From: Rhodococcus sp. (in: high G+C Gram-positive bacteria)
GTDB taxonomy: Bacteria > Actinomycetota > Actinomycetes > Mycobacteriales > Mycobacteriaceae
NCBI GenBank assembly: GCA_023264675.1
Contig: JAHFVG010000019.1
Coordinates: 6,097-70,096 of the forward strand
Direction of reading: 5' to 3'
DNA: 64,000 nucleotides
The position numbers and the translations under genes are program-made. The notes beneath the pieces were generated by a model. The model saw only the letters and a list, made by a program, of their open reading frames with translations, was not told the origin of the DNA and ran no database searches. Position 1 is the first letter of the stretch, and the number at the start of each line of letters is the position of its first letter. Below, piece after piece: positions 10,782-29,786 of the stretch.

Positions 10782-10813
10782 CGTTGTCGCCTTCATTGTT
10801 GTCGCAATTAATT

Positions 10814-10850: not shown

Positions 10851-10867
10851 TGTGTCAAGATTGTGTT

Positions 10868-11668: not shown

Positions 11669-11703
11669 TGACAGCGCGTCAATTATTATCGACAATACGT
11701 CAA
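11669..11703. promoter_or_regulatory. Candidate TetR operators TGAC-N5-GTCA and a degenerate second copy
   Basis: TGACAGCGCGTCA (11669-11681) and CGACAATACGTCA (11690-11702) lie upstream of the SDR-tetR pair. Confidence 0.45.
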
Positions 11704-11742
11704 ACAATGAGGCTGTCGACCTACCTGCGTTCGGAGAAGACG

Positions 11743-12594: not shown

Positions 12595-12619
12595 TGCCCA
12601 CGAAACGGGGGGTGACGTC

Positions 12620-14687: not shown

Positions 14688-15296
14688 ATGGTGAGCCGCG
14701 CGGAGTCGGCAGCCGCGACACGTCGCGCATTGCTGGACGATGCCGCCGAATTGCTCGACAGCGGCGGGCCCGGTGCTGTGACTTTGCGCGAGGTGGGTGC
14801 TCGTGCCGGGGTTTCTCGGGGTGCGCCATACCGCCACTTCGTCGACAAGGAGAGCTTGTTGACGGCGGTGGCCGCCGAGGCCTGGGAACACCTCGGAGAT
14901 CGCATGCAGGCGCTGCGCGGCGACAACGCGACGGTTCCGGCCGAGGCGCTGCGCGGCGACAACGCGACGGTTCCGGCCGTGGCGCTGAGGGCCGCACTCG
15001 CCGAGGTCATTGCCATCAGCCGCAGACAGCCGTATTTGTACGACCTGATGTTCCGCACTCCGACAGCGGATCCGGCCGCGGTTGTCCGTGCCGCTCAACG
15101 CATGTGCGACGAGTTCGCCGCCATCGTCACCACCGTCGTCGGCGAGCAGGACGCCGAGCGCTGCGCCTCGGTCCTTCTTACCGGTGCTCACGGAGCTGCC
15201 GGTCTCGAATCGAGCGGACTCCTCACCACCGACAAATGGCAGACGAATGCAGACGACCTCATCGATACGCTCATCGCTGCGGTCACGCAGCGGTGA
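14688..15296 (+). CDS. TetR-family regulator (WHG-type C-terminus) with an internal 12-aa duplication
   Basis: HTH VTLREVGARAGVSRGAPYRHFVDKESLL; divergent from the SDR. Confidence 0.88.
   Translation: MVSRAESAAATRRALLDDAAELLDSGGPGAVTLREVGARAGVSRGAPYRHFVDKESLLTAVAAEAWEHLGDRMQALRGDNATVPAEALRGDNATVPAVALRAALAEVIAISRRQPYLYDLMFRTPTADPAAVVRAAQRMCDEFAAIVTTVVGEQDAERCASVLLTGAHGAAGLESSGLLTTDKWQTNADDLIDTLIAAVTQR
14908..14979 (+). repeat. Perfect 36-bp in-frame tandem duplication
   Basis: AGGCGCTGCGCGGCGACAACGCGACGGTTCCGGCCG occurs twice (14908-14943, 14944-14979). Confidence 0.95.
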
Positions 15297-15421
15297 AGCC
15301 GAGTGATATGTCACCGGCGGTTTCGATGAGTTTCCGAATCCCCGGGAGTCGATACCGCCGAGGACAACATACTGCGTTGCCGATGACGGCAACTTTCCGC
15401 GGTAGGACAGATGGAGGCACG

Positions 15422-16711
15422 ATGAGCATCGACGACTCGAAGCACCGGAGCAGGATCGAAACAGGCGAGCAAGGGAGCCGTACGGACGGTCCGCGGGTGT
15501 TGGTGGCGGGTGCGAGCGTCGCGGGACCTGCGGTGGCGCATTGGCTTCGGCGATGGGGCGCCGAGGTGACCGTGGTGGAGCGGGCTCCTGACCTGCGTCC
15601 GGGCGGTCAGGCCGTGGACGCCCGTGGGGTGGCCAGGGACGTCATCGAGCGAATGGGGGTGGGCGACGCGGTGCGCGCGGCGTGCACCGACACCGCAGGC
15701 GCCCACACCGTGGACGCGAACGGGGAAGTGCTGCAAACATTTCGCGCCGACGACGAGGGTGGCGACGGCTTCATCGCGGACATCGAGATCCTGCGCGGGG
15801 ACCTAGCGAAGGTGCTCTACGACGACACGAGCGGCGGCGTCGAGTACATCTTCGGTGATCGAATCGCTGAGCTCGCGCAGGACACGGATGGGGTCGACGT
15901 GGTCTTCGCGAGCGGCACCGAGCGGCGCTTCGAGCTGGTGGTGGGGGCCGACGGTCTGCACTCGGCCTTGCGCGCACTGGTTTTCGGGTCGCACGATCGA
16001 TTCCTCCGCCACCTGGGGCACGTGCTGGCCTTCTACAGTGTGCCCAACGATTTCGGATTGGACCGTTGGCTGCTCGAGTATCAGGACCAGGAGTCCGGGC
16101 GATCGACGATGCTGCGACCTTTCCACGAGGGTTCCAGGGCCATGGCCATGTTCTACTTCGGTTCGTCCGAGTTCGGTGTCGACTACCGCGACATCGCAGC
16201 GCAGAAAGCCCTGCTCCGGGCCCGGATGACGGGAATGGGCTGGTTGACACCGAACATCCTCGAGCACCTCGACGACACACCGGACTTCTACCTCGATCAG
16301 GTCGCACAGGTGGTGATGGAGCGGTGGTCGACCGGCCGGGTGGTTCTGCTGGGAGATGCAGCATTCAGTTCGTCGCCGATGTCGGGACAGGGGACCGGGC
16401 TGGCGTTGGTCGGCGCCTACGTGTTGGCCGGCGAACTCGCCGCGGCCGACTGGGACCCCGAAGTCGGGTTTGCTCGCTACGAAGAACGTATGCGCTCGTA
16501 CGTCGAGGCCAACCAGGAGATTGGGCGGTTGAACGCACGCACTCGCGATGTTCCCGGGCCTGACACGGAGCCGATGCCCGACTTCGCCGGAGAGTGGTTC
16601 ACAGAACTGCTCGGGCGCGCGATCAACGGCGTCGAGCTGCCCGACTACACGGGAGTGTCGGGTTCCCGTTCACCTTCGGGGTCGCAGATCGCCCCTTCGT
16701 CAACGCCATGA
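15422..16711 (+). CDS. FAD-dependent monooxygenase (class A; similar to the tetracycline destructase/MabTetX group)
   Basis: GASVAGP, RPGGQAVDARG, EILRGDL, GADGLHS, GDAAFSSSPMSGQGTGLALVGAYVLAGEL. ATG 15422 follows GGAGG. Confidence 0.85.
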   Translation: MSIDDSKHRSRIETGEQGSRTDGPRVLVAGASVAGPAVAHWLRRWGAEVTVVERAPDLRPGGQAVDARGVARDVIERMGVGDAVRAACTDTAGAHTVDANGEVLQTFRADDEGGDGFIADIEILRGDLAKVLYDDTSGGVEYIFGDRIAELAQDTDGVDVVFASGTERRFELVVGADGLHSALRALVFGSHDRFLRHLGHVLAFYSVPNDFGLDRWLLEYQDQESGRSTMLRPFHEGSRAMAMFYFGSSEFGVDYRDIAAQKALLRARMTGMGWLTPNILEHLDDTPDFYLDQVAQVVMERWSTGRVVLLGDAAFSSSPMSGQGTGLALVGAYVLAGELAAADWDPEVGFARYEERMRSYVEANQEIGRLNARTRDVPGPDTEPMPDFAGEWFTELLGRAINGVELPDYTGVSGSRSPSGSQIAPSSTP

Positions 16712-16807
16712 CAATGATGTCCGGAAAGGCCGGCACCAGCCACCATCGGCATCGGGCTACGGGCGCGGGGAGCGGATCCGCATTCGGGGCTTCATACTTG
16801 TCGCAAG

Positions 16808-18343
16808 ATGAGACTCACTTGCGCACTCTTCGTCCTCACCGGCGCCTTGCTTCTGTCTGCCACACCTGCCTCGGCGGTCCCCGGTGAAGCCGACTTCTAC
16901 GATGCCGCCGTCGTAGAGCTCGAGACCTACGCGCCCGGGTCCATCATGCGCCGGGAACCTGTGCCGCAGCTCGACGTTCTGGGATCGCACACCGAGCGAA
17001 TTCTGTACCGATCGGCGGATCCCCGTGATCGCGCGGTGGCGGTGTCCGGGCTTCTGATCACGCCGACCAGTGGGTGGAATGGTCCCGGACCCCGGCCCGT
17101 GATCGCTTACGCGCCAGGTAGTTACGGGATCGCCGACCGCTGCTCGGGCTCGTCCGACCTGGGACTGGCAACGACGATCCCCGCCCTGTTGCCTCTCCTG
17201 GCTGCGGGGTACCAAGTCGTCACGACGGACTATCAGGGATTGGGAACGCCCGGCGAGTACGAGTTCCTCGGGCGAGTCGCAAGCGCACGCGCTCTAGTGG
17301 ACTCGGCTCGCGCTGCGGCACGCGAGACCGACGCGCCCGTCGTGTTCTACGGGTACTCGGCGGGCGGTGTGGCGTCCGCCGCCGCGGTCGAAGTCGCCCC
17401 CACGTACGCACCCGAGGTGTCGGTGGTCGGCGCCTTCGTCGGCGCCGCACCGACCGATCCCGTGCTGCGGGTCGAGTCTCTGGACGGCACCGGGTCAGCG
17501 GCAACGATGCTGTACACGATCGTCGGGCTGATCGGCGCGCATCCTGATCGAGCGGGTGAGATCCGTGCCCTCTTCAACGACCGTGGGCGCGCCGCTCTTC
17601 ATGCGGCGCAGGACTTCTGCACTATCGACGCGCTGACTTATGGAACACTGCGGTCCGAGGACTTGACTGCTGACGGCACGTCCCTGACCGTGCTCATGAC
17701 GGGGCCTGTTCTGGGTCCGCTGACGGCGGAGAACACCGTTGGGTTCACCGCGCCCATCGCACCCGTGATGATCGCGCACGGCATCCACGATCGTTCGGTC
17801 GGTATCGAGCACAGCCGTCGTCTGGCCGACCGCTGGCGCGCCCGTGGCTCGACCGACCTCACCGTCCGCGAGTTGGACTTCTGCACCGATCGCTTTCCCG
17901 CATTCGACCATCCGGGAGCGAACGCTGTCGTCTATCCCGAGGTGATCGGATGGATCGACCAGCTTGTCGGGCGGTCTTGGAGACCGCGACCGGAGCCGTA
18001 CCCGACGAGACGCCGTCGATGGATCACGGCAACGAAAGCGAGGAAAGCGATCGGATCAGCTCGTGTTCGTCGACGCGGGTGCTCCGACCATCGCGGATCA
18101 CGGCTTCACCGTCCACCCAGACCGTGTCCACAACCTGTCGCGTTCCGGTGGTCAACAACGACGCACCCGGGTCGCGCACCGGTAGGCAGGCGAAGTCCCG
18201 CTCGAACCGGACCATCGTCAGATCGGCGACGTCGCCGACCGAAACTCCACCCGCACAGGGCGCAAGCCCCAAGGCCGCATTCGCGCCGCCCGAGGCGATA
18301 TCCAGCATCGCGTCGAAACCGAACAGGTCGGCCTTCTTGTTGA
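16808..18343 (+). CDS. Secreted lipase (LIP family); the catalytic core ends near 17965 and the frame runs on into the convergent gene
   Basis: Signal peptide, TDYQGLGTPG, GYSAGG nucleophile, HGIHD, DHPG. The last ~125 codons look non-homologous, and about 107 of them overlap the amidohydrolase antisense. Confidence 0.78.
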   Translation: MRLTCALFVLTGALLLSATPASAVPGEADFYDAAVVELETYAPGSIMRREPVPQLDVLGSHTERILYRSADPRDRAVAVSGLLITPTSGWNGPGPRPVIAYAPGSYGIADRCSGSSDLGLATTIPALLPLLAAGYQVVTTDYQGLGTPGEYEFLGRVASARALVDSARAAARETDAPVVFYGYSAGGVASAAAVEVAPTYAPEVSVVGAFVGAAPTDPVLRVESLDGTGSAATMLYTIVGLIGAHPDRAGEIRALFNDRGRAALHAAQDFCTIDALTYGTLRSEDLTADGTSLTVLMTGPVLGPLTAENTVGFTAPIAPVMIAHGIHDRSVGIEHSRRLADRWRARGSTDLTVRELDFCTDRFPAFDHPGANAVVYPEVIGWIDQLVGRSWRPRPEPYPTRRRRWITATKARKAIGSARVRRRGCSDHRGSRLHRPPRPCPQPVAFRWSTTTHPGRAPVGRRSPARTGPSSDRRRRRPKLHPHRAQAPRPHSRRPRRYPASRRNRTGRPSC

Positions 18344-19337
18344 CCGCGCGCTGGACATAGGCGCCGATACGCAGAGTTTCCAACATGTCCTGGGTGTCGT
18401 TGCTGGCAGCGCCGTCCACCCCCAACCCGACGCGCAGTCCGGCGGCGAGCATGTCCGGGACCGCGGCAACACCCGATCCCAGACGCATGTTGCTCAGGGG
18501 GTTGTACGAGATTCCGACTCCGCGTTCTGCCAGGACCGAGCGCCCGTGTGCGTCCAACTCGACACAGTGGACAGCCAGCACTCGGTCCCAGAGGAACCCG
18601 TGCCGATCGAGGTAGTCGACGGCCCCGAGACCGACGTGTTCGCGGCACATCACGTCGTCCGTCGGGGTCTCGAGCAGATGGATCATGACGGTCATGTCCC
18701 GCGAGCGGGTGAACTCTCGGACCGCCGCCATGCCGTCGGAAGTCAGGGAACGAGGGTTGGGGACCGCCACTGCAATCGAGATCCGTGTCCCGGCAACGTT
18801 GTCGGCGAGGTGCTCGACGTGATCGAGGACCTCGTGCAGTGGTTGCATCAACCGCGGGTCGAATCCCCACCGCCGGCTCGAGTCGGCCCGGTCGGCGGTA
18901 CCGCGTCCGAGCACGGCACGAATTCCGGTGTCGTTCAGCCCCTTGACAACAGCCTCGTGCACATCGGTGGACGGATGCGGCCACATGTGCTCGACGAGTG
19001 TGGTCGTACCACTACGAAGCGCCTCCAGCGATGCGGCGACGGTCGCGGTGTAGGCGCGCTCGGGTGTGATCGCCACTGAATCCTCCGCGACCGCCAACAG
19101 CCACTCGAGCAGCGGAATGCCCTCTGCGATACCGCGCATCAGCGACTGCTGCATATGCGTGTGCGTGTTGACGAAACCCGGAATCAGATACGCGCCAGTA
19201 CCGTCGACACCGGTGGATCCCGATGATCCCGCGTGGAGGATGTCGGTTACCACGCCGGCACCGACCACGACGTCGCGATGAGGCAACCACTGCCCGCCCG
19301 AGTAAACCGTGACGTCGTGAATCAGAGTGTTGTGCAT
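18024..19337 (-). CDS. Metal-dependent amidohydrolase/deaminase (TRZ/ATZ, MtaD/8-oxoguanine deaminase-like)
   Basis: NTHTH, IHLLET, VHCV, DGAASND. Start moved to ATG 19337. Confidence 0.87.
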   Translation of the reverse strand: MHNTLIHDVTVYSGGQWLPHRDVVVGAGVVTDILHAGSSGSTGVDGTGAYLIPGFVNTHTHMQQSLMRGIAEGIPLLEWLLAVAEDSVAITPERAYTATVAASLEALRSGTTTLVEHMWPHPSTDVHEAVVKGLNDTGIRAVLGRGTADRADSSRRWGFDPRLMQPLHEVLDHVEHLADNVAGTRISIAVAVPNPRSLTSDGMAAVREFTRSRDMTVMIHLLETPTDDVMCREHVGLGAVDYLDRHGFLWDRVLAVHCVELDAHGRSVLAERGVGISYNPLSNMRLGSGVAAVPDMLAAGLRVGLGVDGAASNDTQDMLETLRIGAYVQRAVNKKADLFGFDAMLDIASGGANAALGLAPCAGGVSVGDVADLTMVRFERDFACLPVRDPGASLLTTGTRQVVDTVWVDGEAVIRDGRSTRVDEHELIRSLSSLSLP

Positions 19338-19371
19338 GGGCGTTGTCCCTTCGTGTCCGCTTCGGCGGAAG

Positions 19372-20340
19372 TCAGCGAGCGAAGTTGGCGTTGATCCGCT
19401 GGTACAGATAATCCTCGGCGGTGATGGAGGGGTACTTGCCTGTCGGACCTTCGATGACGGCATCACGGTTGGCCTGCGCGAAGAATGCAAGGCTGTAGCG
19501 AGCACCCTGATACTCGTCCGCAGCGGGGTTCTTCACACGGTGAAAGTTGGACGGTAGGACGTCATCGCTCCACCGCATCAGCATGTCGCCGATGTTGCAG
19601 GTGATGGCGTCGTCCGACGGTTCGATCGGCGTCCACTCCTGGGCGTCCATCTCCCGTCCCGGGCACACCTGTAGCCCACCCTGACCGCTTCGCTGAAAGA
19701 GCAAAGTGAGGCAATCGAAGTCGGTATGTGCTCCGGCGCGCCACGTGTCGGCTTCATCTCCCATCGCGAAGTAATGCAACATCCGGAGTGTGCTCTGGTA
19801 GCTCCGCGACGACGGGTCATGAGCCCGGGTGAAGAACTCCTGATCGAATCCGAGTTTGACGGCAAAGCACGACAGCAACGTCATCGCGAGTTCCCAGCAC
19901 TTCGTCTCGAAGGAAAGTATGGTCTCGCTGAAACCGGCGAGTTCGGACTCCGACGGCCACAGCGTGTCCATATGTGGGCGCGTGACCTGGTACGACTCCT
20001 TCTGATCGGGTGTCCCGATCGATGGCCGCACCTGAGATTTGTACTCCCAACCAGAGTTCAGACCCTTCTTCAGGGGGTACTGGGACTTGACGGTCTCCGG
20101 CAATGCGAAGAACGCCTCTGCCGCAGCGAAGGCGCGGCGCACCTCGTTCAGATCGATTCCATGCTCGACCACCTGGAAGAAGCCGATGTCCGTTGCCGCG
20201 GACCACAGTGCCTCGGTGATCTCATCTCGGCGGGTGTCGAAGTCGGAGAGGTCGATTCGTCTGATCTCGCGGGCGGTCGTCTCGGTTCCGAGTCCACCCA
20301 TACGGCTTTCACGGTTCAGTTCGGTCAGGTCGTAGTTCAT
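19372..20340 (-). CDS. 2-oxoglutarate/Fe(II) oxygenase, IPNS/DIOX family
   Basis: GFFQVVEHGI, HTDFD, HRV, RYS. Start at ATG 20340 after AGGAG. Confidence 0.9.
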   Translation of the reverse strand: MNYDLTELNRESRMGGLGTETTAREIRRIDLSDFDTRRDEITEALWSAATDIGFFQVVEHGIDLNEVRRAFAAAEAFFALPETVKSQYPLKKGLNSGWEYKSQVRPSIGTPDQKESYQVTRPHMDTLWPSESELAGFSETILSFETKCWELAMTLLSCFAVKLGFDQEFFTRAHDPSSRSYQSTLRMLHYFAMGDEADTWRAGAHTDFDCLTLLFQRSGQGGLQVCPGREMDAQEWTPIEPSDDAITCNIGDMLMRWSDDVLPSNFHRVKNPAADEYQGARYSLAFFAQANRDAVIEGPTGKYPSITAEDYLYQRINANFAR

Positions 20341-20384
20341 TACTGTCCATTCTCCTACGAGTCGGGGGTTTCTTCTCTGGTGGT

Positions 20385-21551
20385 TCAACCGATCCCGATG
20401 GACGGGTCGGTGAAGCGGTTGGTGAACAGTTGGTCTGCGGTCACGTCCGCCGGTAGGCGTGCGCCGTCGGCGGCAAGGACCGGCCCGAGTTCTTCGAGGT
20501 TTCGCTGTGTGCGCGAGGGGTCGTACGTCCCGACCGAACCATCGGCTTCGTCCGCGATCAGTCCCTCGTCTCTCAGCAGCGTCGAGCTGAACGCGGCCTC
20601 ACCCTCGGTGTACGGAGTGAACGAGGTGTCCTGCGACACGATGTCGACGATGGTGGAATCGGTGTCTTCCGGCGAGGAGATGTAGTCGGCGGTGGCCTGT
20701 TGAACGATCGGAACCAATTTCTCCAAGCACGGTGAGAGGGACTCCAGCCTGTCCGCTCGTACGGAAACGTTGGACGCGTAGATGTCGAAGCCGGTGTCCT
20801 TGACCAACTGGTACGAGACGGGCTTGGACCATGCAGGCGTGTCCGACTCGTAGGTGTACGGCTCTGAATTGGCGAATCCTTGCTGGGCAATCTCCGGATC
20901 GCCGACGAAACGGGCGGGAGCACCGTCGTACCCGGTATCGAGTTGCGAGGCTTTCAGCAGTCCGTTCTCCACCAGCCACTGCGGAAAGATCTGCTCCTTG
21001 GAGACGACGACGGTGGCGTCGGATGCACCGATGTCGGCGATCGAGGTCCAGTCCGGGTGGCTCTCCGGATCCCACATCAGGATTGCGGGGCTGTATTTGA
21101 GCAGGGGAGTCACGCCGACGACAGGTTGATCCGCGGCAGCGGCGATGACCTGGTCACCGTGCACGATGCCGAGATCGATCGAGTCGTCCACATACATCTG
21201 TGACGTCACCGACTGGAAACCGATCGCAGGACCACCCGCACGCAGAGCGATATCCACCCCGGTATCTTTGCCTTGCGCAACGAGCGGGCCGGTGACCGAC
21301 TTTTCGTCGGCGTCGACGGTGTATCCGGGACCGAGCATCCGAAACAGTGCGCCCATGTCGGATTGGGGTTGCCACTGAAGCTGAATCGTCACTGTCGACG
21401 GGCACACACCGGCCAAGCTGTCCTCGGCAGCGACGGGGTCCAGCGACGCCTCGGTTGCGGGGTCGGCGCTGTCCGAGCTGCAGGCACTCGCGCTCAGAGC
21501 GATGGCCAGCATGACCGCTGCGCCGGCGGTTCGAGTTCTCTTCGTGACCAT
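20385..21551 (-). CDS. ABC transporter substrate-binding lipoprotein (NMT1/THI5-like, SsuA/TauA class)
   Basis: Lipobox ASAC, IQLQWQPQSD, GGP; divergent from the NitT/TauT ATPase and permease. Start at ATG 21551. Confidence 0.8.
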   Translation of the reverse strand: MVTKRTRTAGAAVMLAIALSASACSSDSADPATEASLDPVAAEDSLAGVCPSTVTIQLQWQPQSDMGALFRMLGPGYTVDADEKSVTGPLVAQGKDTGVDIALRAGGPAIGFQSVTSQMYVDDSIDLGIVHGDQVIAAAADQPVVGVTPLLKYSPAILMWDPESHPDWTSIADIGASDATVVVSKEQIFPQWLVENGLLKASQLDTGYDGAPARFVGDPEIAQQGFANSEPYTYESDTPAWSKPVSYQLVKDTGFDIYASNVSVRADRLESLSPCLEKLVPIVQQATADYISSPEDTDSTIVDIVSQDTSFTPYTEGEAAFSSTLLRDEGLIADEADGSVGTYDPSRTQRNLEELGPVLAADGARLPADVTADQLFTNRFTDPSIGIG

Positions 21552-21655
21552 GGCGGGCAACTCTCTGATAGTTGGATTCTGGGAGATGTTGTGCGAAGCC
21601 GATATTCGACGACGGATGCGGCGAGCGGCTGACAACAGTGTGCACGTGGCGTGAT

Positions 21656-21820
21656 TGCATGTAAACCCGGAAATCGACTCGGTGTGTGCGGGCAGCGGAT
21701 TCTTCGCAACAAAGCCCAGCTCGTCGTGCATTCACGTGGTGATCTGTCACGTGAAGTTAACGAGGCGCAACTTGTGTGAAATGCATGTAATGCAGTCTTG
21801 CTACATACAAATTACATGCA
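21656..21820. promoter_or_regulatory. Repeated TGCATGTAA motif, candidate GntR(FCD) operators
   Basis: TGCATGTAA at 21656-21664 and 21782-21790; inverted copy TTACATGCA at 21812-21820. Confidence 0.6.
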
Positions 21821-21840
21821 CTTGAACCTTGGAGGCTGCG

Positions 21841-22620
21841 GTGGACCTGATCGATACCATGCAGGATGCCGACGCAACACTGCTGACGAAGAACACTCGG
21901 ATCGTTTTCGACTCGGTGGTGAAACGCTTTCCCACCGGAACGACGGCGCTCGACGGGATCGACCTTGCTATCCGTGACGGCGAGTTCGTTGCGGTGGTGG
22001 GCCCGTCCGGTTGCGGGAAGTCGACACTACTGCGAATGGCGGCGGGCCTGGAGAGTTGCACCGACGGAAATGTCGCTCTCGGAACCGAATCCGTCGGTTT
22101 CATCTTTCAGGAGCCGACCCTCCTGCCGTGGCGGGACGTACGGGGAAACGTGGAATTGTCCGCCGAGCTGGGAAGCGTCGAGAAGCTGACTCGTCGTCGA
22201 CGAGCGGTGGAGGCGATCGAGGCGGTCGGGCTCGACGGATTCGGCGACCAGCTTCCGAGTGCGTTGTCCGGCGGCATGAAGATGAGGGTGTCGCTCGCCC
22301 GCGCGCTCACCTTGTTGCCGGATGTCTTGCTGCTGGACGAGCCGTTCGGCGCGCTCGACGAGATGACCAGATTCGACATGCAGTCGCTCCTTCAGAAGCT
22401 CTGCAACGAAAGGAAATTCACGGCAATGTTCGTCACTCATTCGGTCTCCGAAGCAGTATTCCTTGCCGATCGGGTAGTGGTGATGACGGCGCGGCCAGGC
22501 CGAGTTCACTCGGTCGTCGACATCGAGTTCGACGGGCCTCGCACGGAGAGCCTTCGTTTCGACCGCAGGTTCACCGACTATGTTGCGCGCATCTCGTCCG
22601 GTCTGCGAGGAATCGCCTGA
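21841..22620 (+). CDS. ABC transporter ATP-binding protein (NitT/TauT family)
   Basis: GPSGCGKS, FQEPTLLPW, LSGGMKMR, LLDEPFGALD. GTG 21841 follows GGAGG. Confidence 0.92.
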   Translation: MDLIDTMQDADATLLTKNTRIVFDSVVKRFPTGTTALDGIDLAIRDGEFVAVVGPSGCGKSTLLRMAAGLESCTDGNVALGTESVGFIFQEPTLLPWRDVRGNVELSAELGSVEKLTRRRRAVEAIEAVGLDGFGDQLPSALSGGMKMRVSLARALTLLPDVLLLDEPFGALDEMTRFDMQSLLQKLCNERKFTAMFVTHSVSEAVFLADRVVVMTARPGRVHSVVDIEFDGPRTESLRFDRRFTDYVARISSGLRGIA

Positions 22621-23489
22621 TGACGCAGTCTCTCACCGTCCGAATGCCCCGCGTTCGTATTGCCCGCGAGAACGTGAGAAGTTCGGCGCCTGCCAAGAAA
22701 TCCGCACGCGCTGCGGTGTCGATCGGTGTCCCCGTGGCGTCGTTCGTCGTTGCGATCCTGGCGTGGTACGCGGTCACCTACTTGATTCTCGCGCCGGAGC
22801 GGCGCTTTCTGCTGCCGGCGCCACACCGTGTGCTGACGCAGTCCCTTGCCGATTGGTCCCATCTTGGGCCCATGCTGGAGGCCCTCGCTGTCACGGCGCG
22901 GGTGACTGCCTTCGGATTCGTGATCGCGGTGCTGTTCGGTCTCGCCGTAGGGATCCTGATGAATCAAGCTCGATGGATCGAGCGAGCAGTATATCCGTAC
23001 GCTGTTGTGCTGCAGGTTATTCCGATTCTCGCGATCGTTCCGTTGATCGGTCTGTGGTTCGGCTACGGGATGGTCGCCCGTATTATCGTCTGCGTGATGA
23101 TCGCGGCGTTCCCGATCATCACCAACACTCACTTCGGACTCCAATCCGTCGATCGTGGGTTACACGAACTGTTCACGCTCGGACGCGCGTCGAAGGTGCA
23201 GCGCCTCGTCAAACTCGAAATGCGCGCGGCACTCCCGGCGATCATGGCCGGAATCCGCACCGCGGCAGGGCTGGTGGTCGTAGGCGCGATCATCGGCGAC
23301 ATGTTCTTCGCCAAGGGGCAGCCGGGTATCGGGACACTGCTCGATGTCTATCGGAGCCGTCTGCAATCCGAGGACCTCATCGCAGCGATCGCAATCGCCT
23401 CGGCGTTCGGCATCGCGGTCTTCTCGCTCTTCGGCATCCTCTCGCGGGCCCTGGTCGGTAACTGGCACGCATCGGGGGCCCGATCATGA
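22620..23489 (+). CDS. ABC transporter permease (NitT/TauT family)
   Basis: TM helices and EAA-like loop (GRASKVQRLVKLEMRAALP). Start at ATG 22620 overlaps the ATPase stop. Confidence 0.9.
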   Translation: MTQSLTVRMPRVRIARENVRSSAPAKKSARAAVSIGVPVASFVVAILAWYAVTYLILAPERRFLLPAPHRVLTQSLADWSHLGPMLEALAVTARVTAFGFVIAVLFGLAVGILMNQARWIERAVYPYAVVLQVIPILAIVPLIGLWFGYGMVARIIVCVMIAAFPIITNTHFGLQSVDRGLHELFTLGRASKVQRLVKLEMRAALPAIMAGIRTAAGLVVVGAIIGDMFFAKGQPGIGTLLDVYRSRLQSEDLIAAIAIASAFGIAVFSLFGILSRALVGNWHASGARS

Positions 23490-24556
23490 CACTTCGTACA
23501 GACCGGAAAGGCTCAGCCACCGTGGTATTCGACATTCCCACCATCGATATCGGCCCATTCGTCGACGACGCGCGAATCAGCGAACGCGACACCGTTGCAC
23601 GTGAGCTGGATCGCGCATGCACCGAGGTCGGATTCGTGCAGATCGTCGGCCACGGCATAGCCGACGAGGTCATCGACGGCCTCGCCCGTGGCCTCGACCA
23701 GTTCTTCGCGCTACCGCTGAGCATCAAGAAGCAGTACCGCCGGCCGCCCGAGCAGAATCGAGGTTACTCGCCGCCGAAATCCGAATCGCTGAGCATGAGC
23801 CTCGGCGTCCCGTCGGCGAACAACATGAACGACTTCTACGAGTCGATCGTGGTGGGCACCGAGGTATCGGACTACCCCGAACTCGATCTACCCGAGTCCA
23901 GCTACGCAAGCAATGCGTGGCCGAAGGAGTCGGCCGAGTTCATGCCCGCGGTTCAGAACTACTTCCGACACGCGCAATCGCTGTCGCGAGTACTGCTGCG
24001 CGCGTTCACCGCCGCGCTGCGCTTGAACGACGGTTACTTCGACCGGATGGTGGACCATTCGATCGACGCGTTCAAGATGAACAACTATGCGCTGCCCGAG
24101 GGGGAAACGAGCTTCGATGTAGGTGCGACAGGCATGGGTGCTCACACCGACTTCGGGATCCTGACGATCCTGTGGGCCGACCAGGTTCCCGGCTTACAGG
24201 TGTTGGGGTCGGACGGCCTGTGGCACGACGTCCAACCGGCCGACGGAGCCCTGCTCGTCAACCTCGGTGATGCGATGGCGCGATGGACGAACGATCGGTG
24301 GATGTCCACGGTTCACCGAGTCGACCCACCGATCGTCGACGGTCAGATCATCCGTCGTCGCTCGGCGGCCTTCTTCTTCGACGGAAACCACGATGCGGTC
24401 ATCGAGACGCTTCCCGGGTGTGAAAGCAATGGTGAGGCCACGTATTCACCGATCACTGTCGCCGAGAACATTGCTGCAAAAGTCGCGGGACTGCGCACCG
24501 GTATCGCACCGAACGGTGAGTTGCGCGAAGCTGCACGGGTGATGGCGGCGAAGTAG
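23486..24556 (+). CDS. 2-oxoglutarate/Fe(II) oxygenase, IPNS/DIOX family
   Basis: IPTIDI, GFVQIVGHGI, HTDFG, HRV, RRS. ATGA overlap with the permease. Confidence 0.9.
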   Translation: MTLRTDRKGSATVVFDIPTIDIGPFVDDARISERDTVARELDRACTEVGFVQIVGHGIADEVIDGLARGLDQFFALPLSIKKQYRRPPEQNRGYSPPKSESLSMSLGVPSANNMNDFYESIVVGTEVSDYPELDLPESSYASNAWPKESAEFMPAVQNYFRHAQSLSRVLLRAFTAALRLNDGYFDRMVDHSIDAFKMNNYALPEGETSFDVGATGMGAHTDFGILTILWADQVPGLQVLGSDGLWHDVQPADGALLVNLGDAMARWTNDRWMSTVHRVDPPIVDGQIIRRRSAAFFFDGNHDAVIETLPGCESNGEATYSPITVAENIAAKVAGLRTGIAPNGELREAARVMAAK

Positions 24557-24603
24557 GCGAGAATGATGGTCGGCACGGTAACTGACATGCATGGACGGGA
24601 CAC

Positions 24604-25248
24604 ATGACCACAACGGATCGGGAACTACTCACGGAGTCGGTACACGCGATACTGCGTGAGCAGATCTTCTCCGGCGAGCTGCCTCCCGGCACGGCATTGA
24701 GCGTTCCAGCGTTGGCCGCCAAGCTCGAGGTCAGCCGAACGCCGGTGCGTGAGGCAGTGCAACAGTTGATCTACGAGGGAATCGCTGTCCACACCCGCAA
24801 TGCGGGGGCCAAGGTCGATTCGCTCGACGCGAACACCATTCGCTCGGTATTCGAAGTCCGGGAACTACTCGACGGTTTGGCGGCCCATCGAGCGACACTC
24901 AATGCCACGCACGACGTCATTGCGGAACTCCGGCTCATGGTCAGCGAGCAGCGGGACTTGCTCGGTGGCCATGCCGATGCCAAACGCGATGCGTTGTTGG
25001 ATCTTCGCTTTCACACGCGTATCCGTGACGTGGCGCAGAATCGGCCCTTGAGCGATGCACTGCTGCGGCTCGACAGCCAGGCTCATCTCTATCGGTCCGA
25101 CATGTGGTCGAGCGACACCGGGCGTCGACTGGCAGTCCAGGAGCACGAACGAATCGTCGACGCCATCGAGACCGGCGATGCCGAGGCCGCCAGAACGGCC
25201 GCGTCCGCGCACGTGGCGGGATTGCTGGTGCGGATCACGCGAAAGTAG
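24604..25248 (+). CDS. GntR-family regulator, FCD domain
   Basis: LAAKLEVSRTPVREA HTH, FH, EHERI. Confidence 0.92.
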   Translation: MTTTDRELLTESVHAILREQIFSGELPPGTALSVPALAAKLEVSRTPVREAVQQLIYEGIAVHTRNAGAKVDSLDANTIRSVFEVRELLDGLAAHRATLNATHDVIAELRLMVSEQRDLLGGHADAKRDALLDLRFHTRIRDVAQNRPLSDALLRLDSQAHLYRSDMWSSDTGRRLAVQEHERIVDAIETGDAEAARTAASAHVAGLLVRITRK

Positions 25249-25466: not shown

Positions 25467-25877
25467 ATGAATATCGAACCTGTTGTTGCGACATCGAAGA
25501 ACCCGCCGGAGCAGTTCGCCGGCGACGTCTGGCTCGATCCGATCGCAGTGCCTCACGAACCCGATCAGCACATGGTGGTTGCAACAGTGCGGTTTGCGCC
25601 GGGTGCGCGTACAGCCTGGCACTCGCACGTGCACGGGCAGTATCTGCGCGTGACGCACGGCGTCGCACGGTTCGGGGGGCGTGACGGAACGATCATCGAA
25701 GTGCGTGCCGGTCAGACCCTGTACACGCCTCCCGGCGAGGAGCATTGGCACGCGGCCACCGAGGACACCTTCATGGAACACATCGCGATGCTCGAGAACG
25801 GCGAGGACCCGGCAACTACCACCACCTGGCTCGAACACATCACGGACGACGAATATGCGGGCCGTCGTATTCTCTGA
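25467..25877 (+). CDS. Cupin-domain protein (QdoI/mandelonitrile lyase-like)
   Basis: FAPGARTAWHSH..GQ and EEHWHAA motifs. Confidence 0.87.
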   Translation: MNIEPVVATSKNPPEQFAGDVWLDPIAVPHEPDQHMVVATVRFAPGARTAWHSHVHGQYLRVTHGVARFGGRDGTIIEVRAGQTLYTPPGEEHWHAATEDTFMEHIAMLENGEDPATTTTWLEHITDDEYAGRRIL

Positions 25878-25905: not shown

Positions 25906-26655
25906 TCAGTAGTTGTTGCCGAGCATGGCGTACTGCGCCCAGAGCGGCCGGGTGAGCAACGCGGCCCGATCGATGAATGTTGTTGTCGCCCAGATGTCGG
26001 CCCAGACCAGTTCGGGTCCCACTACCGTCGTCGAACCGATGCGCTGCACCGCTGATCCGGTCCGCGGATCGATGATGTGTGCACCGCGTGCCGAGGTACC
26101 CGACGTGGCTACGGCGCCGTCGGTGATCGCGACGACGTGGGTGATGGTGGATGGGCATTGCGGGTCCTCGACGCCGACGCGCCACGGCCGCGCGAGTTCC
26201 GGCGAGTCGACGCCGAGGCCGCAGACGATGTCGCCTCCCGCGTTGATCGAGAACGCGACGTGGTGTGTGTCGCGCAGGTGCTGGGCGGCGTCGCCGACTG
26301 CCCAGCCTTTGACGAGTCCAGTGGGGTCCCATCCTCGGGAGCCGTCCGGTCCGATGAGGTCGGTGGTGAACAGCCCGCCGGTTTCGGCAGCGGCCCGCTC
26401 GCACAGTTGCTGTACCTCCCTGATCCAAGGGTGCGCGTCGTCGATGGTGAGTTCTCCTCGGCGCAGGCGCATCACGTCGCTGTCGGGCCGCCACGTGCTG
26501 AACACGTCGTCGACGAGGCGTAGATGGGCGAAGGCCCGGTCGACGGCGTCGCCGACGTCGGGGCGGTTCCGCTCGGCGGCGCGTACGTGTATCGAGATCG
26601 GCATTCCCATGATCTGCTCGACCCAGGCTCGGGTGGACACGTTTTCGGGACTCAT
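25906..26655 (-). CDS. apbE: FAD:protein FMN transferase (ApbE family)
   Basis: MGMPISI, DPTGLVKGWA, INAGGD, VATSG, HIIDPRTG, ADIWAT. ATG 26655 overlaps the stop of the FMN-binding gene. Confidence 0.87.
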   Translation of the reverse strand: MSPENVSTRAWVEQIMGMPISIHVRAAERNRPDVGDAVDRAFAHLRLVDDVFSTWRPDSDVMRLRRGELTIDDAHPWIREVQQLCERAAAETGGLFTTDLIGPDGSRGWDPTGLVKGWAVGDAAQHLRDTHHVAFSINAGGDIVCGLGVDSPELARPWRVGVEDPQCPSTITHVVAITDGAVATSGTSARGAHIIDPRTGSAVQRIGSTTVVGPELVWADIWATTTFIDRAALLTRPLWAQYAMLGNNY

Positions 26656-27149
26656 GACAGGTGCGCCTGGTCGATCGCGGACTGCAGACTCTCGACGTAT
26701 CCCTCGGAGGTGTAGGTGGCGCCGGAGACCATGTCGATGTCGGCCGATCCCGCCTCGATTGTTTCCTCCTCGAGAACGGGGACTGCTCGGGCATTGATCT
26801 GTTGGTCTCGTCCATTGCTCGTGGGGTAGTCGATCGCGGCGGCATCGGTGATGGTCCCGTCGGTGATCGTGATCTGCACTCGAACAGGTCCGAATCGGGT
26901 ACTGACCGACGTTCCGGTCACCGTCTGGGGCGTCGCCGCGGTGGTGGTCGTGTCGCTGGGGGGAGGGGTTCCCGCGGACGCCGACGGCGAGGGATCCGAC
27001 TCCGTCGAAACATTGGATGTTGTTGCAGGTGCCGTCGATTCGGAGGAGAGGATCACTGTCGGTGTCGGTCCGCTGGTCGAAGTGTGGTAGCTGAACAACA
27101 GCACCAGCGCGGACAGCGTGGTCAGAACCCAGGTGGTGATTTTTCGCAT
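26652..27149 (-). CDS. Membrane-anchored extracytosolic FMN-binding protein
   Basis: N-terminal TM/signal, S/T/P linker, FGPVRVQITI, flavinylation motif SGAT (DMVSGATYTS). Confidence 0.88.
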   Translation of the reverse strand: MRKITTWVLTTLSALVLLFSYHTSTSGPTPTVILSSESTAPATTSNVSTESDPSPSASAGTPPPSDTTTTAATPQTVTGTSVSTRFGPVRVQITITDGTITDAAAIDYPTSNGRDQQINARAVPVLEEETIEAGSADIDMVSGATYTSEGYVESLQSAIDQAHLS

Positions 27150-27158
27150 GATCGGCTC

Positions 27159-28577
27159 TCAGAGATGAAAGGATTCGGAGTGGATTCGCTCGGCAGGCGT
27201 GCCCGCTTGGCGGGCGGCTCGTCGCACGGCTTCGGTCCACGGGTCGGGGCCGCAGATGAAGATGTCTCGCTCTGCGGCGTCGGGGCACATGTAAAGCAGT
27301 GCCGCGGTGTCGTCCCAGTTATTGGCGTGCACTGGTAGCCAACTGTCGCGGTCGGGAATGCGACGGCCTTCGACGACGCGGTAGTCAGCGCCTCGCTCGC
27401 GGGCGAGATCGTGGATCTCGTGGCTCAGGACGGCCTCGTCGACACTGCGGACGCGATGAACAACCATCACCTCGCCCGGCTGTTGGGGTAGCGATTCGAG
27501 GAGGGAGCGTATGGGGGTGATGCCGATTCCGGCGCCGATCAACAGTGTTTTGCTACGTGTTCGGGTGCCCGCGTGCATTCGGCCATACGGTCCCTCGACG
27601 AGAACGCGTGTACCTGGCTGCAGCGTGGTCAGTTCAGCGGTGCCGTCGCCGAGGACAGCGGCAGTGAATCTCAATGTCGTGGCGTCGGGAGCGGCCGACA
27701 ACGAATACGGGTGGGCGCGGGTCCAGCCGGGTCCGGTGAGAAAACGCCACTGGAAGTACTGCCCGCCCTGGGCCCGTAAGTGTTCGACGCCGGGGCCGGC
27801 CACGGTGACGGTCACGGCATTACCGGGCTCGCATCGAACGTGCACGACTCGAATGTTCGCGCGCGCCGATGCCCACAATGGAAGCGCGATCCGCCACAGC
27901 AGAACCGATCCGGCGCACCCGATGTACAGCGTCCACCAGAAGATCGTGGCTGCAGTGGATTTCAGAAAGTCTTCACCGCTCCACAGCTGATGGGGGAGTG
28001 CAAGGCCTGCGCCGAGGTAGGCGTAAAGGTGGATCAGATGCCACGATTCGTATCGCAGCCGGCGCCGAGCAGCTCGCGCCGAGGTGATCACCACCAGGAT
28101 CAATGCAAGGGTGCCGGCCACCGCGAGCAGAACACCGGGATAATCGATGGTGAGGTCGACGATCGTGTCCCACACCTTGGTCGGGTCCGCGGCGGCGTAG
28201 CCCAGAACGATCAGACCGATGTGGGCGAGCATGAGCGTGAACGAAGTGAACCCGACAAGCCGGTGCACCCGCGTCAATTCGTCCTGCCCCCACGCGCGTT
28301 CGATCCAGGGCACACGCGCCATGAGGAACACCTGAAGTAGAAGCGAGGCCGAGGCGAGGAGGCCGGTGAGTCGACCCACGGAGGTCAGCGCATCGCTGGT
28401 ACCGGTCCACAAGTTCTGGATCCCGCCGTCGCTTGTCCACAACGCAGCTACGAACAGCAGCACTGCCCACGCGGCGATCGCCGATGCGTATCGCCACCAC
28501 CGCGGCACGAGACGGGGCTCGGTGCGCTGCGACGCCTCAGCGATGGTGCGTGGTTCTCCGTGCAACAAGCTGCTCAT
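27159..28577 (-). CDS. Ferric reductase-like transmembrane protein fused to an FNR-type FAD/NAD domain
   Basis: Heme His in HRLVG, LAHIG, WHLIH, LPHQ; HPYSLS, EGPYG, GAGIGITP, CGP. Confidence 0.88.
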   Translation of the reverse strand: MSSLLHGEPRTIAEASQRTEPRLVPRWWRYASAIAAWAVLLFVAALWTSDGGIQNLWTGTSDALTSVGRLTGLLASASLLLQVFLMARVPWIERAWGQDELTRVHRLVGFTSFTLMLAHIGLIVLGYAAADPTKVWDTIVDLTIDYPGVLLAVAGTLALILVVITSARAARRRLRYESWHLIHLYAYLGAGLALPHQLWSGEDFLKSTAATIFWWTLYIGCAGSVLLWRIALPLWASARANIRVVHVRCEPGNAVTVTVAGPGVEHLRAQGGQYFQWRFLTGPGWTRAHPYSLSAAPDATTLRFTAAVLGDGTAELTTLQPGTRVLVEGPYGRMHAGTRTRSKTLLIGAGIGITPIRSLLESLPQQPGEVMVVHRVRSVDEAVLSHEIHDLARERGADYRVVEGRRIPDRDSWLPVHANNWDDTAALLYMCPDAAERDIFICGPDPWTEAVRRAARQAGTPAERIHSESFHL

Positions 28578-28731: not shown

Positions 28732-29766
28732 ATGCATCTGGGCGTGGACAGCTTCGTCTCCTCCGTGACGGACCCGACGGACGAGCGAGTGATCGGTCCG
28801 GCAGAGCGGATGGGGCACCTGCTGGAGGAGATTGCGCTTGCCGACCAGGTCGGGCTCTACTCGTTCGGCATCGGCGAGCATCATCGCAGCGAGTACTACG
28901 ACTCGGCGCCGTCGATCATTCTTGCCGCCGCGGCCGCTCGCACCGAACGGATCAGACTCGGCAGCGCCGTGAAGGTGCTCAGCGCCGATGACCCGGTTCG
29001 TGTATTCCAGGAGTTCGCTACCCTCGATCTGATCTCGAAGGGACGCATCGACCTCGTTGTCGGCCGCGGGTCGTTCACCGAGTCGTTCCCGTTGTTCGGG
29101 TTGGACCTGCACGACTACGATTCCCTCTTCGCGGAGAAGCTGGAGCTTCTCTTGCAGATTCGCGACAACGTCGAGGTCACGTGGTCCGGTCGGCACCGGC
29201 CTGCACTGGACCGACAGAGCATTTTTCCGCGCCCGGTGCAGGATCCCCTGCCCATCTGGGTCGGTGTCGGCGGAACCCCGGAGTCCTTCGTCCGCGCGGG
29301 GTTGCTGGGACTACCGCTGATGATCGCCATCATCGGCGGAGAACCACGCCAATTCGCTCCGTTGGTGGATCTGTACCGCCGGGCGGGAGCGGAAGCAGGA
29401 CACGCTCCCGAGAAGCTGCAGGTCGGTCTGCACGTGTTCGGCTTCGTGGCCGAGTCGACGCAGGTTGCAGCCGACACCATCTATCCAGGCTGGCACGAGA
29501 TGTTCACCAAGGTTTCGCGCGAGCGCGGGTTCGCCCGTCCCACCCGCCAGCAGTTCGACGCCACCTCCGGTCCGAACGGTGCATTCTTCATGGGCGACCC
29601 GCAGACTGTCGCCGACAAGATCTTGCGGGTCGGCGAACAGCTGGGCGGAGTGGACCGACTGTCGCTTCAGATGACTAATCCGCGGTTGGCACACGGGGAC
29701 TTGCTGCGCGGGATCGAACTTCTGGGTACCGAGGTTGCCCCGCTGGTAAGCGCCCACTCACACTGA
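28732..29766 (+). CDS. LLM-class flavin-dependent oxidoreductase
   Basis: GIGEHHR, DPVRVFQEFATLDLIS.GR, GRGSF. Confidence 0.9.
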   Translation: MHLGVDSFVSSVTDPTDERVIGPAERMGHLLEEIALADQVGLYSFGIGEHHRSEYYDSAPSIILAAAAARTERIRLGSAVKVLSADDPVRVFQEFATLDLISKGRIDLVVGRGSFTESFPLFGLDLHDYDSLFAEKLELLLQIRDNVEVTWSGRHRPALDRQSIFPRPVQDPLPIWVGVGGTPESFVRAGLLGLPLMIAIIGGEPRQFAPLVDLYRRAGAEAGHAPEKLQVGLHVFGFVAESTQVAADTIYPGWHEMFTKVSRERGFARPTRQQFDATSGPNGAFFMGDPQTVADKILRVGEQLGGVDRLSLQMTNPRLAHGDLLRGIELLGTEVAPLVSAHSH

Positions 29767-29786
29767 CCCCGTGAGGGCCGCGCTCG

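Follow-up and report, generated by a model that had tools for sequence, protein, structure and literature searches.

A conserved actinobacterial gene cluster joining an ABC importer, two 2-oxoglutarate oxygenases and a predicted deaminase, with candidate N-heterocyclic substrates

In a 64-kb stretch of a Rhodococcus sp. contig (JAHFVG010000019.1; called the window here, coordinates being those of the window unless a locus number, L, is given), seven intact genes at 18024-25248 form two divergent operons. The minus-strand operon encodes an amidohydrolase (AMID1), an oxygenase (OX1) and a lipoprotein substrate-binding protein (SBP), while the plus-strand operon encodes the ATPase and the permease of an ATP-binding cassette (ABC) importer, a second oxygenase (OX2) and a GntR/FCD regulator. 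This cluster is probably a GntR/FCD-controlled module for nitrogen scavenging (or salvage), with a small, planar, oxo- or amino-substituted, nucleobase-like N-heterocycle as its substrate. The gene content of related loci points to two parallel oxidative branches behind one importer. A first-pass annotation of the same DNA had described the seven-gene layout, which proved correct in every particular.

Conservation, modularity and operator of the cluster

Relatives of OX2 number about 2,500 at E<=1e-20, the closest being from Rhodococcus, Williamsia, Gordonia, Nocardia, Mycolicibacterium, Corynebacterium and Streptomyces. A scan with one genome per species detected at least 548 of them, and 80 loci with 10-kb flanks were kept. 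The ortholog set was defined as 41 genome loci with an OX2 of at least 57% identity, which were searched by tblastn with the seven window proteins; about 55 orthologous loci entered the overall comparison. Within the 41 loci, orthologs of the SBP were present in 38, GntR in 35, the ATPase and permease in 34, OX1 in 24 and AMID1 in 14. OX2 adjoins the SBP/ABC genes in most orthologous loci. In R. erythropolis and R. qingshengii the proteins of the cluster share 68-77% identity with their window counterparts. Loci in which the OX2 relative was at most 55% identical had no transporter, indicating that these proteins are paralogs. The orthologous cluster was found in Rhodococcus, Gordonia, Williamsia, Nocardia, Mycolicibacterium, Tsukamurella, Corynebacterium, Streptomyces, Actinocorallia and Nocardioides, where its proteins carry generic database names, e.g. 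"isopenicillin N synthase family dioxygenase" or "nitrate ABC transporter substrate-binding protein".

The seven genes remain linked in at least five different arrangements across several actinobacterial genera, that of the window being one. In Nocardia, Tsukamurella and some Mycolicibacterium the order is AMID1-SBP<->ATP-PERM-OX2-OX1-GntR (the double arrow marking divergent genes). The genes are arranged in two separate units in Actinocorallia, OX1 is inverted in one Streptomyces, and a metagenome contig has AMID1-ATP-PERM-SBP-OX1-GntR. The SBP and ATPase genes diverge in the same way, 177-405 bp apart, in 31 related loci, which bears out the earlier proposal that a single ABC transporter is split across a shared promoter, the 277-bp region of the window.

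OX1 was accompanied by an amidohydrolase in 23 of its 24 loci, the lone exception being a 4.8-kb contig. In 13 of these the enzyme was AMID1, and in the other 10 it was AMID2, an alternative amidohydrolase of 416 aa that is absent from the window and lies immediately 3' of GntR in sister clusters. Nine loci (Gordonia, R. wratislaviensis and others) contain the full importer, OX2 and GntR with neither OX1 nor an amidohydrolase, and loci of Nocardia and Corynebacterium are reduced to SBP and OX2, with GntR present or absent. OX2 is missing from two metagenome loci (L084, L097) that contain SBP, OX1, AMID1, ABC genes and GntR, as well as from L095 and L096, in which the arrangement is GntR-OX1<->SBP.

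The existence of loci with OX2 only, and of loci with OX1 and an amidohydrolase in the absence of OX2, indicates that the two oxygenases belong to separable, probably parallel branches. The same loci contradict the single linear route of two oxidations plus a deamination that had been proposed for this DNA. Judged by gene content, each oxygenase appears to be dispensable, OX2 occurring without a deaminase and OX1 only alongside one. The simplest reading is that one importer feeds two parallel branches, in which the compound oxidised by OX2 would need no deamination, and OX1 and the deaminase would take the amino analogue. Were the amino group removed first, OX2 could be sufficient for the two branches, so that the existence of a dedicated OX1 suggests an oxidation that comes before the deamination.

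The octamer TGCATGTA was detected in 31 of 32 SBP<->ATPase intergenic regions. It lies within a 12-bp pseudo-palindrome, ATTRCATGYAAT (ATT(A/G)CATG(C/T)AAT), of which each region holds two to three copies. Exact matches to TGCATGTAA occur only three times in the 64 kb of the window (at 21656, 21782 and 21812), and in 1.54 Mb of loci plus the window the 12-mer, at one mismatch or fewer, was found almost exclusively in these promoters. In the split Actinocorallia clusters it is present at both of the separated transcription units. Three Nocardia loci without a GntR gene inside 10 kb also have it, in the gap between SBP and OX2. This distribution is good evidence for a single dedicated regulon. 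The presence of the operator at every transcription unit, including the rearranged ones, together with the cohesion of the seven genes, upholds the functional tie between the two operons that the first-pass annotation had put forward. The operator is presumably recognised by the GntR/FCD protein of the cluster, which would act as a repressor; an effector would then release it from the three ATTRCATGYAAT operators, so that the two operons are turned on at once.

An Rfam scan of the whole window detected no riboswitch and no other RNA family, and a scan for promoter and terminator consensus sequences gave matches at chance level. Public RNA runs covering the R. qingshengii ortholog consisted of long assembler contigs with flat depth and coded conditions, and were uninformative on induction or operon boundaries.

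A paralogous system was observed in Mycolicibacterium palauense (L062, 4516-12200). It contains an XRE-cupin regulator, a canonical NMT1 SBP (127 bits) and an ATPase 50% identical to that of the window, after which OX2-like and OX1-like oxygenases lie side by side. The design of a transporter with two oxygenases has arisen or persisted more than once. In two Nocardia genomes the SBP/OX2 pair is adjoined by a gene for a protein of ~230 aa with a C-terminal RidA/L-PSP domain (L015/L016, 7169-8604), and a protein of the same type adjoins an OX2 paralog in a Burkholderiales metagenome-assembled genome (MAG; L067, 11249-11941). This protein is possibly an imine-hydrolysing helper.

Protein families and the substrates they suggest

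Both oxygenases match the Pfam domains DIOX_N and 2OG-FeII_Oxy at 67-90 bits (cut-offs 23-27). The HxD...H and RxS motifs reported earlier for both proteins were found in their translations (HTD/FHRV/RYS in OX1 and HTD/VHRV/RRS in OX2), RxS being the motif that binds the C5-carboxylate of 2-oxoglutarate (2OG). The facial triad of OX2 (H220, D222, H277) is invariant across 25 orthologs. In a PDB search, the closest natural solved relative of OX1 was the thymine dioxygenase (thymine-7-hydroxylase, T7H) of Neurospora crassa (5c3p, E 6e-29). OX2 matched the same structure at E 1.5e-33 and was slightly better matched by 9ovh.

The latter entry, 9OVH, is a reconstructed ancestral protein (Anc357) that is essentially inactive, and thus gives no functional information on arginine/guanidine chemistry. 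The lead from this best match to an ethylene-forming enzyme (EFE) and guanidine was dropped, as was 6JYV, which has no assigned function. No Rfam match in the window and no guanidine-pathway gene among the annotated genes pointed to an ethylene- or guanidine-forming enzyme either. The domains of OX1 and OX2 also differ from the TauD fold (PF02668) expected of a XanA-type enzyme.

T7H residues Phe292 and Asn87 are conserved in OX1 and OX2, and Tyr217 is replaced by Phe in both. The aromatic pair of T7H corresponds to Phe297 and Phe223 of OX2. These motifs are common to family members of unassigned function, and the T7H pocket residues were therefore rejected as a substrate discriminator. At the position of T7H Arg190, OX1 and the OX2 paralogs have Arg, and all OX2 orthologs examined have Lys (Lys197); in T7H, mutation of Arg190 to Lys caused a drastic loss of activity (PMC4787775). 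Ring or sp3 C-hydroxylation would suit the oxygenases at least as well as demethylation.

The SBP has a signal peptide with an invariant lipobox Cys24. A sequence search of the PDB found no match for it. In a Foldseek search its AlphaFold2 model (pLDDT 85.7) was closest to ThiY (3ix1, formylaminopyrimidine-binding, E 4e-15), a thiamin-binding SBP (4nmy) and Thi5, followed by TauA, SsuA, NrtA and CmpA (E 1e-10 to 1e-7); the protein is longer than the top matches by about 60-90 residues. The NCBIfam models nearest to the ATPase were SsuB, NtrCD and TauB, and those nearest to the permease were SaoP, SsuC and NtrB, all below cut-off. On the modelled SBP fold and the family matches of permease and ATPase, the transporter is assigned to the NitT/TauT family of ABC importers (TC 3.A.1.17-like). 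The scores are far below the equivalog cut-offs for SsuABC, TauABC or NrtABC, and the cluster contains no TauD or SsuD.

A pyrimidine pair oxidised at its methyl group, as by T7H, has to be considered at this point. The pair could be thymine and 5-methylcytosine, or it could include a thiamine-derived 4-amino-pyrimidine (hydroxymethylpyrimidine, HMP, or formylaminopyrimidine, FAMP); OX2 would oxidise the oxo pyrimidine, and OX1 with the deaminase would take the 4-amino analogue. No natural characterised homolog is closer to either oxygenase than T7H, thiamine pyrimidines are the ligands of the nearest structural neighbours of the SBP, and AMID2 is related to cytosine deaminase. Such a pair is nevertheless quite unlikely, given that the cluster and the annotated flanks, of the window as of related loci, showed no gene of iso-orotate decarboxylase type, that the Rfam scan of the window detected no thiamine pyrophosphate (TPP) riboswitch, and that Arg190 of T7H is Lys in the OX2 orthologs. 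Moreover, no pyrimidine-catabolism neighbours were seen, whereas purine-catabolism ones were.

The transporter models also bring to mind a non-heterocyclic nutrient handled by the logic of TauABC-TauD. In this case the carbon beside a heteroatom of a sulfonate, sulfate ester, phosphonate or guanidino compound would be hydroxylated, freeing sulfite, phosphate or guanidine. This is very unlikely: ThiY, the thiamin SBP and Thi5 outscore TauA and SsuA, every transporter match is far below its equivalog cut-off, and a nucleobase-type deaminase would have no role. Cys and Met are not depleted in the seven proteins (0.9-4.2%, against 2.8 +/- 0.9% in the window), which thus lack a sulfur-starvation signature. 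The nearness of the ATPase and permease to SsuB/TauB and SsuC, the significant structural similarity of the SBP to TauA and SsuA, and the position of a Streptomyces paralog (L054) downstream of ssu/tauD-like genes are consistent with such a nutrient. A 2OG-dependent methylguanidine hydroxylase is also known (PMC12508155), but the window has no guanidine riboswitch and the EFE-like match of OX2 is the inactive ancestor 9ovh.

AMID1 retains the catalytic set HxH (NTHTH), HxxE (HLLE), His (VHCVE) and Asp (VDGAAS), and carries the GuaD-type Gln after beta-strand 1 (NTHTHMQQ). These are the residues by which subtype III deaminases of the amidohydrolase superfamily are recognised (PMC12828455), and AMID1 is accordingly placed in that subtype as a GuaD-cluster-like, predicted deaminase/hydrolase. 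Its best NCBIfam model was 8-oxoguanine deaminase (NF006055; 243.6 bits, cut-off 532), while guanine deaminase (TIGR02967) scored 100.9 bits (cut-off 375). A bona fide 8-oxoguanine deaminase that scores 676 bits is ~32% identical to AMID1. The top PDB matches were AtzA (4v1x), 3hpa and 7ww2, the last listed as an 8-oxoguanine deaminase, with E values of 1e-41 to 1e-43; TrzN was also matched. AMID2 is CodA-like, scoring 173 bits with NCBIfam cytosine-deaminase models (below cut-off) and matching CodA and AtzC in the PDB. It lacks Gln156 and Asp314 of CodA and has signatures of its own, PHAHLDKAL and GxDN. AMID1 and AMID2 both fall into the nucleobase-deaminase subtype of the superfamily, whose substrates are amino- or alkylamino-substituted oxo-purines, oxo-pyrimidines and oxo-triazines (PMC12828455, PMC13054789).

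The matches of AMID1 to AtzA, as its top PDB match, and to TrzN, together with that of AMID2 to AtzC, raise the question of a xenobiotic s-triazine (atrazine- or melamine-like), whose side chains would be N-dealkylated by the oxygenases and which would be dechlorinated or deaminated by the TRZ/ATZ hydrolase. The chromosomal, syntenic position of the cluster, and the divergence of its proteins to 55-75% identity over many actinobacterial genera, mean an age and a spread far beyond those of a herbicide pathway. Neither a gene for cyanuric-acid hydrolase nor any other of the atz/trz genes lies nearby, and the source is a groundwater metagenome. A triazine substrate is extremely unlikely.

Distant relatives of the SBP, down to 38-47% identity, were collected by scanning metagenomes with an SBP alignment. 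Their typical operon, which is widespread among metagenome contigs (L101-L162), encodes an AMID2-like protein, ATPase, permease, SBP and a FAD_binding_4 oxidase, the best match of the oxidase being PDB 6V42. A TRZ/ATZ hydrolase or a creatininase-family, methylenetetrahydrofolate reductase (MTHFR)-like or luciferase-like monooxygenase protein is often added. These operons also often occur with a NIT-sensor histidine kinase and a Peripla_BP_6 protein. Their make-up indicates that the theme of import, oxidation and hydrolytic deamination predates the 2OG oxygenases, and the AMID2-like deaminase is the ancestral partner of this SBP transporter family.

The same operons suggest creatinine and 1-methylhydantoin (or a related hydantoin) as the amino/oxo pair, a cyclic guanidine and a ureide with five-membered rings. 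OX2 would hydroxylate 1-methylhydantoin at C5 to 5-hydroxy-1-methylhydantoin, and OX1 would convert creatinine to 5-hydroxycreatinine, which the amidohydrolase would deaminate to the same product; ring opening would be left to enzymes encoded elsewhere. Creatininase-family genes are present in 6 of 36 distant SBP loci, and in L095 and L096 they adjoin the orthologous SBP/OX1/GntR genes, together with a FAD oxidase and TRZ/ATZ hydrolases. The creatinine deaminases that are known belong to the CodA family, and AMID2 is CodA-like yet not a cytosine deaminase. Hydroxylation of an sp3 C-H bond is canonical 2OG oxygenase chemistry, the MTHFR-like gene of some distant operons would suit the handling of an N-methyl group, and the two-branch logic of oxo and amino forms fits equally well. 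On the other hand, genes for creatininase, hydantoinase or the sarcosine pathway were missing from the window cluster and from most orthologous loci, the genes that adjoin orthologous loci belong to urate rather than creatinine catabolism, and the nearest relatives of AMID1 act on six-membered-ring amidines. On balance this pair is rather unlikely, though it is the strongest of the alternatives to a purine.

A purine-type substrate

The substrate class favoured by the first-pass annotation, a modified nucleobase or other N-heterocycle, outlived the linear route attached to it. It agrees with the structural neighbours of the SBP, the types of deaminase, adjoining urate genes and purine-linked paralogs. 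Within this class, a purine-type substrate that feeds urate or xanthine is proposed tentatively, as plausible but short of probable.

Several neighbourhoods point to purines. In the orthologous cluster of Rhodococcus sp. RD6.2 (L006), genes for uricase, 5-hydroxyisourate (HIU) hydrolase, DUF6986 and allantoicase continue the SBP-OX1-AMID1 arm on its own strand. OX1 is abutted in two Mycolicibacterium loci (L009, L012) by genes for a PbuX xanthine permease (498 bits, cut-off 414), HIU hydrolase, uricase and a bona fide 8-oxoguanine deaminase (676 bits, cut-off 532). Among the paralogs, an OX2 relative of ~50% identity is followed directly by PbuX in five Streptomyces loci (L054, L057, L066, L073 and L079, at about 10001-12800), and a bona fide 8-oxoguanine deaminase lies 0.5-2 kb from OX2 paralogs in L074, L077 and L079. 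A Solirubrobacteraceae MAG (L047, 1-13419) has uricase and a GntR/FCD gene divergent from a Bmp-type ABC importer, which is followed by an OX2 paralog, 2-oxo-4-hydroxy-4-carboxy-5-ureidoimidazoline (OHCU) decarboxylase, HIU hydrolase and a second OX2 paralog, whose stop and start codons overlap. This compact set is a putative purine cluster, and none of the open reading frames (ORFs) annotated in the 13-kb contig was noted as a xanthine dehydrogenase. In one metagenome locus (L119), uricase is located 8 kb from a distant SBP.

In the scheme that we infer, including the substrate class, the order of steps, repression and the nitrogen-scavenging purpose, the lipoprotein SBP would capture the heterocycle outside the cell and the NitT/TauT-type ABC system would bring it in. 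OX2 alone would oxidise the oxo form, our guess being xanthine to urate. OX1 would oxidise the amino analogue, from which the amidohydrolase would then strip the amino group, our guess being guanine to 8-oxoguanine and, by AMID1, to urate. Both branches would converge on a product usable by ordinary urate/allantoin catabolism. These particular reactions would explain the two-branch modularity, the relatives of AMID1, the adjoining urate genes and the PbuX-linked paralogs, and yet are unlikely as stated.

Oxidative N-demethylation of methylated purines, in line with the idea of the first-pass annotation, suits the same gene context as a variant of the purine proposal and is itself on the unlikely side. 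A Rieske VanA-like oxygenase encoded beside three oxygenase paralogs is compatible with it. The locus in question (L071, 4785-11640) carries this Rieske/VanA-like gene, then the three paralogs of isopenicillin N synthase (IPNS) type and a Bmp-type ABC importer, and has the look of a system in which several oxygenases act on a substituted purine or nucleoside.

Several observations weigh against a purine. Urate genes adjoin the orthologous cluster in two independent lineages only, and a search for the operator upstream of these urate genes found none, so that adjacency is their sole link to the cluster. The other purine-linked proteins are paralogs of ~50% identity, which have Arg197 in place of the invariant Lys197 of OX2 orthologs. 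Further contexts of OX2 paralogs are non-purine (an XRE-cupin regulator in 10 loci, sugar-type ABC genes and major facilitator superfamily transporters), and with such diversity the transfer of context to OX2 is weak. The nearest structural neighbours of the SBP bind pyrimidines and not purines. With AMID1 below all equivalog cut-offs and AMID2 lacking the CodA residues, a named substrate is indicated for neither. The creatininase-family, FAD oxidase and MTHFR-like genes near distant SBPs indicate creatinine/hydantoin-type or N-methylated substrates equally well. Xanthine dehydrogenase is already present in many actinobacteria. Finally, a literature search found no precedent for aromatic purine C-H hydroxylation by the IPNS-type oxygenase family.

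A literature search for Rhodococcus gene sets of IPNS-type oxygenase, ABC importer and amidohydrolase, for bacterial or molybdenum-independent xanthine oxidation and for 2OG-dependent nucleobase catabolism found no described pathway that matches the cluster, in line with the earlier reading. The superfamily of each protein is known, and an importer encoded with catabolic enzymes and a local repressor follows ordinary logic. The modular two-branch design and the operator are new. A more far-reaching proposition, and a doubtful one, is that OX2 and OX1, of an IPNS/T7H-like family, are purine ring hydroxylases that work without molybdenum, the first from bacteria, and that a new high-affinity ABC purine importer serves them. 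If true, the 2OG-dependent chemistry would be new for this enzyme family in bacteria, and 8-oxoguanine deaminase-type enzymes would gain a catabolic role beyond the clearing of damage.

None of the four specific families reaches NCBIfam equivalog level. The identity of the substrate would assign a function to four large unannotated families (the SBP, the two oxygenase subfamilies and the AMID2-like amidohydrolases) and would show how soil and groundwater actinobacteria scavenge a nitrogen-rich heterocycle, possibly by new 2OG-dependent nucleobase chemistry. Since OX2 occurs by itself, OX1 with only the deaminase, or the two together, and since the operator is sharply defined, the system lends itself to direct tests in genetically tractable Rhodococcus strains.

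Gene coordinates, surroundings and comparison with known systems

The features of the cluster are listed in table 1. The ATPase and permease genes overlap by 1 nt (TGATG), and the permease and OX2 genes by 4 nt (ATGA). Base composition in the window is 60-66% G+C, the best matches of its proteins are Rhodococcus proteins, and only one public run, from a groundwater metagenome, matched the region in full.

Table 1. Genes and control elements of the cluster in the window.
Feature	Position	Strand	Details
AMID1, TRZ/ATZ-type metal-dependent deaminase/hydrolase (predicted)	18024-19337	-	437 aa; Pfam Amidohydro_1, 171 bits
OX1, Fe(II)/2OG oxygenase, IPNS/DIOX_N type	19372-20340	-	322 aa; Pfam DIOX_N + 2OG-FeII_Oxy
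SBP, lipoprotein of NitT/TauT-type ABC importer	20385-21551	-	388 aa; Pfam NMT1 weak, 23.3 bits (cut-off 20.5)
Divergent control region common to both operons	21552-21828		277 bp; SBP<->ATPase gap
Operator copy 1, ATTGCATGTAAA	21654-21665		matches conserved pseudo-palindrome ATTRCATGYAAT
Operator copy 2, AATGCATGTAAT	21780-21791		ATTRCATGYAAT motif match
Operator copy 3, ATTACATGCACT	21811-21822		immediately 5' of ATPase start
ABC ATP-binding subunit	21829-22620	+	263 aa from TTG; alternative ATG at 21859; Pfam ABC_tran
ABC permease	22620-23489	+	289 aa; Pfam BPD_transp_1
OX2, Fe(II)/2OG oxygenase, IPNS/DIOX_N type	23486-24556	+	356 aa; alternative GTG at 23522; Pfam DIOX_N + 2OG-FeII_Oxy
Weak operator-like site, TGCATGTCA	24583-24591	-	1 mismatch; between OX2 and regulator gene; alone not above chance
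GntR + FCD regulator, FadR subfamily	24604-25248	+	214 aa; Pfam GntR 55.6 bits, FCD 76.7 bits

Upstream of the cluster, a pair of genes for a FAD monooxygenase and a secretory lipase (LIP; 15104-18000) is syntenic with Williamsia muralis (L081, 2148-4930), which has two small multidrug-resistance genes at the place of AMID1 and AMID2 at the opposite end of its cluster. The LIP ORF of the window (16808-18343, plus strand, 511 aa) has a Pfam domain that stops at residue 385, and its final ~115 residues form an Arg/Pro-rich tail overlapping the 3' end of AMID1 on the opposite strand. Its Williamsia counterpart has 396 aa, and the extension probably reflects a spurious read-through, the loss of a stop codon or an assembly indel.

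On the other side, a small cupin gene (25467-25877) is closely followed by minus-strand genes (25906-28577) for an ApbE flavin transferase, an FMN_bind protein and a Ferric_reduct/NAD_binding membrane protein, likely a flavinylated membrane redox module unrelated to the cluster. These are followed at 28732-32189 by genes for a luciferase-like monooxygenase, a VIT1-family iron/manganese transporter and a Ser/Thr protein kinase, for which no tie to the cluster was seen.

The closest solved natural system for the oxygenases is T7H of Neurospora crassa (PDB 5C3P-5C3S), which shares their fold and their DIOX_N + 2OG-FeII_Oxy architecture. T7H holds the free nucleobase between two aromatic residues, a pair that is kept in OX2. 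Unlike T7H, to which OX1 and OX2 are only about 30% identical, OX2 orthologs have Lys in place of Arg190. The fungal enzyme works in thymidine salvage with iso-orotate decarboxylase as partner, whereas the genes here lack such a partner and sit with an ABC importer and a deaminase.

Fungal XanA, which converts xanthine to urate in an alpha-ketoglutarate-dependent, molybdenum-independent reaction, is a possible functional parallel to OX2 upstream of uricase. The parallel rests on the location of OX2 or its paralogs beside genes for uricase, HIU hydrolase, OHCU decarboxylase and PbuX. It is an analogy and not one of membership, the two enzymes belonging to different Pfam families. XanA is a member of the TauD family (also cited in PMC9304392, its ref. 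15).

AMID1 shares its catalytic set and GuaD-type Gln with the cluster of 8-oxoguanine deaminase, AtzB and NdmH (PDB 3HPA, 7WW2). NdmH is an N2,N2-dimethylguanine hydrolase, and the AtzB/8-oxoguanine deaminase group acts on guanine analogues, including modified ones (PMC13054789, PMC12828455). AMID1 is set apart from 8-oxoguanine deaminase by its ~32% identity and its 244 bits against the 532-bit cut-off, and in sister clusters a CodA-like enzyme replaces it. That enzyme, AMID2, belongs to the same subfamily as E. coli CodA and AtzC and has the same metal and catalytic residues, but is without the counterparts of Gln156 and Asp314.

Among importer systems, MgdH/MgdL of Vreelandella boliviensis resembles the cluster in combining a 2OG oxygenase with an ABC importer, there for a nitrogen-rich compound used as nitrogen source. 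It carries out methylguanidine demethylation under riboswitch control, coupled to a guanidine carboxylase (PMC12508155), both the riboswitch and the carboxylase being absent here. ThiXYZ with ThiY (an importer of formylaminopyrimidine/HMP), TauABC-TauD and SsuABC all have, as here, a NitT/TauT-type importer and an SBP of NMT1 fold. The cluster differs from the ThiY system in having no TPP riboswitch and in its longer SBP without a match in the PDB at sequence level. From tauABCD it differs in drawing its oxygenase from a non-TauD family, and it follows the same plan, in which the oxygenase gene accompanies those of the importer that supplies its substrate.

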